DNA from: a virus
Taxonomy: Duplodnaviria; Caudoviricetes
Reading direction: 5' to 3' (one strand)
Length of the DNA stretch: 64,000 bases
Virus record (IMG/VR): IMGVR_UViG_3300020371_000002
In this document: positions 50,812 through 51,070 of the stretch, piece after piece
How the letters are laid out: each line of letters starts with the position of its first letter
How positions within the stretch are numbered: the stretch's first letter is position 1
Notes under the pieces: model-generated
The model's database searches: none
Told to the model about the DNA's origin: nothing
What the model saw: only the letters and a program-made list of their open reading frames with translations
Made by a program: the position numbers and the translations under genes

Positions 50812-51070
50812 CATTACACCCCCAAGGACTACTTGGGTAAGAAGGCTAGTCTAACCCCCATCTCCCATTCAGGCAGTCGCGAGTTCACGAGTGCGGGAGA
50901 ATGCTACGATGTTGTTCGCAGCGACATCAGATGGTTTAGCATCTATTGGTTGCTTATCCAAGCAGGTTTCAGTCATGCCCCTTGTACCCCGTCGAAGCCA
51001 GTGCGACCCCATGAGTGGAGTCGAGGGGAATCGAACCCCTGTCCGAAATGTAGGTTGCATCACCTATTCC
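50812..51070 (-). ncRNA. ssrA: Circularly permuted (two-piece) tmRNA: acceptor piece ~51070-51016, 5-nt spacer, coding piece from 51010; tag ANNIVAFSRTRELATA (50919-50869); outer ends approximate
   Basis: T-arm AGGGG-TTCGATT-CCCCT; acceptor CGACTCC-A pairing GGGGTCG with G3-U70; CTGG-CTTCGACGG D-loop motif; cyanobacterial ANNIV.FSR tag. Confidence 0.9.

Follow-up and report, generated by a model that had tools for sequence, protein, structure and literature searches.

A stretch of viral DNA of 64,000 nucleotides (IMG/VR record IMGVR_UViG_3300020371_000002), referred to below in its full length as the window, carries on its minus strand a genuine circularly permuted tmRNA gene (ssrA) of the cyanobacterial type, located within the tRNA cluster of a T4-like cyanophage. 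This gene likely encodes a functional two-piece tmRNA that would work with host factors and probably add a tag of 23 residues to the proteins of stalled ribosomes. Permuted tmRNAs of cyanophages were already known, and the window adds a new example whose tag is phage-specific and probably lengthened.

Identification and organization of the gene

A permuted tmRNA (tmRNA*) is called by ARAGORN at 50778–51105 (minus strand). When the whole window is searched with Rfam 15, the cyanobacterial family RF01851 (cyano_tmRNA) matches 50808–51098 (minus strand) over its entire length (model positions 1–288 of 288) with 145.5 bits (E 1e-39), for a gathering cut-off of 70 bits and a covariance model that leaves pseudoknots unscored. 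A gathering scan also gives 86.4 bits for RF04321 (tmRNA_permuted) on this locus. Because the RF01851 match is full length at such a score and ARAGORN independently of it makes a permuted call, a chance match is excluded. The gene order is permuted, as the T-arm and the 3' acceptor strand (51040–51016) precede the 5' acceptor strand and the tag frame (51010–50869). A first-pass annotation made from the letters of the window had proposed a permuted two-piece tmRNA on the minus strand, inside a tRNA operon, and had named the tmRNA mode of ARAGORN and the Rfam permuted cyanobacterial model as checks; both checks confirm the proposal.

The acceptor piece (51016–51082, minus strand) was delimited by the Rfam alignment, motif coordinates and the covariation among ten phage homologues. 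It begins with a 5' hairpin (51082–51067) that is part of the Rfam model, followed by the 5' strand of helix 2 (51065–51052), the UUUCGGAC element (51048–51041) and the T-arm (51040–51024), which were all located from the sequence, the Rfam alignment and a motif locator. The acceptor 3' strand CGACUCC (51023–51017) and the discriminator A (A73, position 51016), placed like the coding piece by the Rfam alignment and the motif locator, complete it; no CCA is encoded after the discriminator in the window tmRNA. A segment of 5 nt, CUCAU (51015–51011; sequence, Rfam alignment and motif locator), separates the two pieces and would be removed when the precursor is cut; short intervening segments are present in host genes too. 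The coding piece (50807–51010, minus strand) starts with the acceptor 5' strand GGGGUCG (51010–51004), continues with the 3' strand of helix 2 (50983–50971) and the tag frame, and ends with a terminal hairpin (50823–50807) that closes its 3' helices. The acceptor stem thus consists of seven pairs, GGGGUCG/CGACUCC and then A, with G3.U70.

All structural details of the first-pass annotation agree with this organization: the seven-pair acceptor stem with G3.U70 and A73 (sequence and Rfam alignment), the T-arm and UUUCGGAC lying before the acceptor 3' strand (motif coordinates), the gap of 5 nt between the halves and the helix-2 pairing AGG/CCU plus GCAU/AUGC are all found. Its limits for the gene, 50812–51070, enclose the right structural parts, but the 5' limit has to be moved as the hairpin at 51082–51067 belongs to the Rfam model. 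It had also warned that an ORF of 64 aa overlies the RNA, which is indeed found at 50869–51063 (minus strand), and that tRNA-only annotation would miss the gene. The deposited records of relatives do miss it, with CDSs for a 'hypothetical protein' lying over the tmRNA; small hypothetical proteins are routinely annotated in place of this gene.

The phage and the neighbourhood of the gene

The window belongs to a T4-like cyanomyovirus. The records closest to it are those of Synechococcus phages, and its products include a baseplate wedge protein (phrog_219, E 3e-196; gene at 14044–15912), a tail protein (phrog_350) and a fibre of 2260 aa with a peptidase S74 chaperone domain. No match to an integrase family was obtained among the window ORFs scanned. 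An ORF of 3059 aa (4864–14043, minus strand) adjoins the baseplate wedge gene and presumably encodes a giant baseplate or fibre protein. A carbamoyltransferase gene (PF16861 and PF02543; 48345–50015, minus strand) separates the fibre gene from the tRNA cluster. Five genes of the 2OG-Fe(II) oxygenase or cupin/JmjC type (29379–29960, 34222–34986, 38919–39473, 47312–47782 and 50015–50515, all on the minus strand) are scattered over 21 kb around the tmRNA, and the tmRNAs of S-SSM7 and Sf-FS3 are found in a similar neighbourhood. Among the very few large plus-strand ORFs, one of 387 aa (36679–37842) has no Pfam match; the GC skew flips to +0.16 at 36–38 kb, the next 2 kb having 35% GC and a skew of -0.20, and this region may be an inserted cassette.

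The location within the tRNA operon claimed by the first-pass annotation is correct, the order being Leu-Thr-tmRNA-ORF65-Ala, all on the minus strand. The genes of tRNA-Leu(UAA) (51173–51256; ARAGORN and Rfam) and tRNA-Thr(UGU) (51083–51156; ARAGORN) come first, and the latter abuts the start of the tmRNA acceptor piece. Downstream of the tmRNA, a gene of 65 aa (50594–50791), here called ORF65, matches phrog_2818 (E 1.3e-25) and is thus a member of a real phage gene family; it is followed by tRNA-Ala(UGC) (50531–50603; ARAGORN and Rfam). The phrog_2818 gene ends 10 nt inside tRNA-Ala (50594–50603), so that its stop region overlaps the 5' end of a tRNA carried by the same strand. In S-SM1, S-RIM50 and S-RIM32, tRNA-Thr and tRNA-Ala are adjacent, and in one metatranscriptome contig position 50603 is joined directly to 51083. 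Judging from these junctions, the tmRNA and ORF65 form a module of 479 bp that is present in some lineages only.

The nearest isolate, Sf-FS3 (PV340856.1), has the same tRNA-Leu/Thr-tmRNA arrangement, with a tmRNA that is 90% identical to that of the window and unannotated in its record; the paper describing this phage relied on tRNAscan-SE alone and makes no mention of a tmRNA (PMC12284385). This arrangement is also seen in an IMG/VR record (tmRNA at 146.9 bits) in which 70% of the window's words are present, and DNA metagenomes from four studies contain 78–95% of the words of a 1.4-kb stretch. Since the stretch is carried by DNA metagenomes and the arrangement recurs in Sf-FS3 and in the IMG/VR record, the locus is not an assembly chimera. 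Elsewhere, IMG/VR contig 3300043434_000331 has a cyanophage tRNA array of about 20 genes, in which the tRNA-Sec model finds a match at 5251–5336 whose score, 47.4 bits, just equals the gathering threshold; the match may come from a tRNA with a long arm and not from a genuine tRNA-Sec.

A phage lineage distinct from host tmRNAs

The host set comprised 120 loci retrieved by their tag-coding pattern and 30 found when 301 WH7803-family genomes were searched by BLAST without such a bias, ARAGORN being run on all of these loci. In the BLAST search of the 301 genomes, the best identity of a host sequence to the window tmRNA is 82%, over a conserved stretch of about 95 nt in the tRNA-like half. A maximum-likelihood tree was built from 147 distinct tmRNAs bounded by ARAGORN (16 from cyanophages and 131 from hosts) after a sequence-based MAFFT alignment. 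Fourteen of the 16 cyanophage tmRNAs group in a single clade apart from hosts (UFboot/SH-aLRT 100/99), and the other two sit on long branches and are unreliably placed. As four rows have very long branches (L012, L018, L153 and L154), the claim made here relates to the clade of 14 rows only: according to this tree, cyanophage tmRNAs form a lineage of their own, for which no donor, root or date is claimed. A phylogeny against host ssrA, as suggested by the first-pass annotation, therefore separates phage from host genes. Its idea that the phage had acquired a host-type gene is right with respect to the cyanobacterial type of the RNA but not as a recent capture, given the separate phage clade and the identity to the best host. 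A recent host origin was thus rejected (at most 82% identity over partial lengths to 301 host-family genomes).

Structural selection and the possibility of a relic

All 13 related phage loci tested score between 82 and 171 bits on RF01851. In an alignment of ten phage homologues, which are about 70–90% identical, the acceptor stem pairs in every sequence and G3.U70 is invariant. Two adjacent stem pairs (columns 97/115 and 98/114) show compensatory double changes, from AU to GC in two homologues for one and from CG to UA or AU in four for the other. The T-arm, two hairpins of the tag region and the 3' helices covary as well in these ten sequences, so that double changes affect 11 of the 54 pairs predicted by folding the alignment. 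As compensatory substitutions keep the stems across diverged phage homologues, the structure of the tmRNA is under selection, which speaks strongly against a decaying relic.

Such a relic, namely a copy of a host ssrA gene brought in by recombination or left at an integration site and carried along without function, is very improbable. This origin would have precedents, as tmRNA genes are common targets of integration whose fragments are found in prophages (PMC9004378), and the module made of the tmRNA and ORF65 is an indel relative to other cyanophages. However, the gene is intact, matching the model over its full length without truncation, and its stems are kept by compensatory substitutions across lineages that are only about 70–75% identical. 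Furthermore, the phage clade, present in 113 IMG/VR contigs and in several genera of Kyanoviridae, is old and widely distributed, no host reaches more than 82% identity, and the window has the appearance of a lytic phage of the T4 type, with no integrase match among the ORFs scanned.

The tag reading frame

ARAGORN reads the tag as AKPSDVAANNIVAFSRTRELATA, i.e., 23 codons from GCU to UGA made of AKPSDVA plus ANNIVAFSRTRELATA. With its stop, this extended frame would occupy 50869–50940 (minus strand; ARAGORN reading and comparison of variants), and the part homologous to host tags, ANNIVAFSRTRELATA and UGA, 50869–50919 (minus strand; Rfam alignment). The latter can also be read as a shorter frame of 16 codons from GCG to UGA (50919–50869). 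The two frames share the UGA at 50871–50869 and the end ELATA, the tag frame being open for seven more codons upstream of ANNIV. The first-pass annotation had given ANNIVAFSRTRELATA-stop as the tag; this frame is present, but the tag is probably 23 aa long and not 16.

Host tags are all of 16 aa and follow AN[NK]IV[RSA]FSRQ[ATSP]APVAA in about 150 host tmRNAs examined, in agreement with the earlier statement that ANxIV.FSR tags are typical of marine Prochlorococcus and Synechococcus. The window tmRNA does not have a tag of this type: it keeps the core ANNIVAFSR but has seven codons ahead of it and ends with TRELATA, whereas host tags end with Q.APVAA. Among viral contigs, 113 carry this in-frame extension of 21 nt, whereas it is missing from all of the approximately 150 host tmRNAs examined. 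The tag frame is always open and terminated by a stop in 60 distinct variants of the upstream-plus-tag region (113 IMG/VR contigs and isolates), and the spacing from the conserved context to ANNIV is exactly 21 nt in 56 of the 60 (cyanophage A-ANNIVAFSR tmRNAs). The consensus of the proposed 23-residue tag can be written A[KN]xxxxA-ANNIVAFSR-variable-[LV][AV][TA][AV]. The part following FSR varies among phages (TRELATA, STVAA, ILTREFARTDELVTA, PFSKVAKRDLVAV and, rarely, the host-like QAAPVAA), and the tag ends are always hydrophobic or alanine-rich, as is typical of ssrA degrons. Two IMG/VR contigs (L187 and L238) combine the seven-codon extension with a host-like end, ANTSDVA-ANNIVAFSRQAAPVAA, which indicates that the extension and the altered C-terminus are separable traits.

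In the tmRNA of Escherichia coli, the resume codon GCA is preceded by AUAGUC, and the A at -4 is critical. In the window, GCU at 50940–50938 is preceded by AAUAGAU, similar to the E. coli context and likewise with an A at -4, and this A precedes the upstream GCN in all 46 distinct 33-mers. The variation of the extension also resembles that of a coding sequence. Codons 1 and 7 are GCN in 46 of 46, only their third base varying; the mean entropy is 0.70/0.47/1.01 for the three codon positions; and frame 0 is devoid of stops in all 46, whereas frame 2 contains stops in 35. Since a pre-resume context with an A at -4 precedes the upstream GCN and since the variation is coding-like, these comparisons make it probable that the tag has 23 residues rather than 16.

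The RNA could also be a functional tmRNA on which translation resumes at GCG 50919, the tag then being the 16-aa ANNIVAFSRTRELATA and the upstream 21 nt a structural hairpin spacer. This is conceivable although less likely. In the Rfam alignment, GCG AAC AAC does line up with the resume codon of hosts (GCG, 50919–50917). In addition, bases -4 to -1 pair with bases 9–12 of the extension, as AGAU/AUCU in 31 variants and with the strands swapped, AUCU/AGAU, in seven, so that a selected hairpin could fix the length of 21 nt without any coding role. However, GCG 50919 is preceded by GUCGCU, with a C at -4, while AUAGAU and its invariant A at -4 sit at the upstream GCN; in the unextended phage tmRNA L018, an ACAGAU context directly precedes ANNIV; and the invariant GCN codons, the entropy pattern and the distribution of stops also speak against a spacer.

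Resumption at the upstream GCN is thus preferred, and the extension itself points to a history. Some extensions read ANNIDTA, and these ANNIDTA-ANNIV variants point to a tandem duplication of the start of the tag. On balance, the comparison of variants leans towards the view that cyanomyovirus tmRNAs are a separate, long-evolving lineage whose tag was duplicated (+21 nt), with a resume codon located in the loop of a conserved hairpin and a phage tag of 23 residues. The two readings of the tag differ in their predictions: proteins would carry the junction ...-AKPSDVAANNIV and the C-terminal addition ...AKTSDVAANNIVAFSRTRELATA with a 23-aa tag, versus ...-ANNIV and ...ANNIVAFSRTRELATA with a 16-aa tag. 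If the extended tag is real, searches of proteomes could find the proteins rescued and tagged during cyanophage infection, and it could be asked whether the phage alters their fate. An adaptor or a protease, for example, might not treat a 23-residue tag in the same way as the host tag, or the rate of degradation might differ.

Expression

A late promoter had been proposed for the cluster by the first-pass annotation. The motif searches do not support a T4 late promoter: the exact motif, TATAAATA, occurs once in the window, far away at 4855–4862, and nowhere within the locus. A CTAAATA heptamer (51165–51171, minus strand), 8 nt upstream of tRNA-Thr, is late-promoter-like but of doubtful significance. 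It is not above chance in the window (9 occurrences for 11.9 expected, all on the minus strand, which carries nearly all large ORFs) and Sf-FS3, in which 4 nt separate tRNA-Leu from tRNA-Thr, lacks it. A sigma-70-like site (51491–51463) ahead of the upstream DUF7294 gene could serve as the promoter just as well, the sigma-70 scan of 49900–52400 giving 4 promoter-like sites for 4.8 expected. No terminator was found in the scan of 49900–52400.

Assembled contigs from RNA libraries cover 50805–50968 in three runs and none covers 50969–51092, with possible carry-over of DNA; being assembled, these contigs do not allow RNA ends, strand or processing to be read. Seven RNA runs from four studies contain 7–50% of the sampled words of the tmRNA, two metatranscriptomes of 26 Mb among them standing at 0.32. 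These data suggest that the tmRNA is expressed in the sea.

A model for the activity of the phage tmRNA

No smpB gene was found in the sequences searched. PF01668 has no match in five related phage records (G001, Sf-FS3, S-CAM1, S-CAM3 and S-SSM7), control genomes giving matches, and within the 64-kb window the best hit of a tblastn search with SmpB of Synechococcus WH7803 has an E value of 3.8, in accordance with the first-pass annotation, which had seen no smpB there. As smpB was found neither in the window nor in the five records, the RNA would have to use the SmpB of the host, together with its alanyl-tRNA synthetase, EF-Tu, RNase P and CCA-adding enzyme.

The processing, charging and timing of expression of the RNA and the fate of the tagged proteins can be pictured as follows. 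The tmRNA would be transcribed with the neighbouring tRNAs as a polycistronic precursor. Host tRNA-processing enzymes would make three cuts in this precursor, one following tRNA-Thr, one (by RNase P) at the G1 that opens the coding piece and one following the discriminator A, to which the host CCA-adding enzyme would add CCA. The two pieces would be held together by the acceptor stem and helix 2, and the RNA would be charged by the host alanyl-tRNA synthetase through G3.U70 and A73. Assuming compatibility with host SmpB, this protein and EF-Tu would then bring the RNA to ribosomes that have stalled on mRNAs which are broken or lack a stop codon; such mRNAs should abound after the phage degrades host nucleic acids. 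Translation would then move to the tag frame, GCU 50940 being the most likely resume codon. A phage-type tag of 23 residues with the ssrA-like hydrophobic/alanine end ELATA would be added, and the ribosome would be released.

Alternatively, the RNA could be a decoy that mainly binds host SmpB or competes with the host tmRNA, thereby blocking or redirecting host trans-translation instead of rescuing ribosomes for the phage. That the RNA must engage host SmpB, no phage smpB having been found, would fit this role, as would the difference between the phage and host tags; moreover, the DS6A RNA, which has a tRNA-like domain alone, inhibits tmRNA in E. coli (PMC4131195, PMC11915505). However, a tRNA-like domain would suffice for a decoy, yet the whole coding piece is conserved: its 3' helices covary, and its open, stop-terminated tag frame is found in the 60 variants, with wobble variation of the coding type and a hydrophobic C-terminus resembling that of ssrA tags. 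A decoy is thus improbable, and a tmRNA that is active in trans-translation accounts better for these features.

Comparison with known tmRNAs

Two-piece tmRNAs are known in marine Synechococcus, Prochlorococcus and Cyanobium (Sharkady and Williams 2004, as cited in PMC9004378). The window tmRNA has the gene order of these host RNAs, a tRNA-like domain with G3.U70 and A73, helix 2, the core ANNIV.FSR, no encoded CCA and a full-length match to the same model. It differs from them in being encoded by a phage in which no smpB was found, in belonging to a phage-only clade at 82% identity at most and, as described above, in both ends of its tag.

In phages, ssrA genes were reported by Hudson et al. 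in 2014 only from mycobacteriophages and Bacillus phage G (PMC4131195). Like the window gene, those of Bxz1-group mycobacteriophages and of phage G depend on host SmpB, but their tmRNAs are one-piece and unpermuted, with other hosts and tags. The DS6A RNA described in the same paper is an inhibitor without a tag frame, whereas the window RNA has one. Buchholz et al. (2022; PMC9004378) then surveyed 18,146 phage genomes and obtained 133 distinct tmRNAs, 53 of which are two-piece (50 of these from marine or aquatic phages), and discussed a role of phage tmRNAs in ribosome rescue and amino-acid recycling. RefSeq viruses are also included in the tmRNA database published in 2025 (PMC11915505). The OM43 myophage Melnitz and pelagimyophages resemble the window phage as marine T4-like myophages with a permuted ssrA and no reported smpB (PMC9004378), but their tmRNAs are of the alphaproteobacterial type with ANDD... 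tags (as in L009 and L013), unlike the cyanobacterial-type RNA of the window. A glutamine riboswitch occurs in the 3' domain of the tmRNAs of Melnitz, Mosig and AG-345-P14 but not in the whole group (PMC9004378); in the window, the Rfam scan detects no riboswitch family at gathering score.

The closest known systems are the permuted tmRNAs of S-CAM1, S-CAM3, S-SSM7, S-CRM01, S-CBWM1 and AG-345-P14 listed in Table S1 of PMC9004378, so the novelty implied by the first-pass annotation does not hold. This table lists the cyanomyovirus genes without analysis of their tags. No description of the tag extension was found in the papers searched, an absence that is no proof of novelty, and the extended tag and the resume-codon hairpin are the only parts for which no published description was found. 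In S-CAM1 (L151), a wcaG RNA motif (RF01761, 83.5 bits; 5566–5662) lies 2.3 kb downstream of the tmRNA.

The Table S1 cyanomyoviruses and the window phage share the same RNA family and the same phage family, Kyanoviridae, and the Table S1 phage tmRNAs that were compared are all above the RF01851 cut-off and have the seven-codon extension, as in the window. Their identity to the window tmRNA is 75% for S-CAM1, 75% for S-CAM3, 81% for S-SSM7 and 71% for AG-345-P14. The window phage nevertheless belongs to a different lineage, nearest to Sf-FS3, and the C-terminus of its tag differs from theirs. The genomic position differs too: in the window and Sf-FS3 the tmRNA has tRNA-Thr on one side and tRNA-Ala or Asn on the other, but it precedes tRNA-Arg and Val in S-CAM1 and S-CAM3 and has no tRNA nearby in S-SSM7. 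The window and Sf-FS3 thus add one more cyanomyovirus lineage to the phages that carry their own ribosome-rescue RNA. Taken together, these cyanophage copies are not recent captures of host genes but a lineage that phages maintain and whose structure is under selection; their tag is distinct from those of hosts and probably longer.
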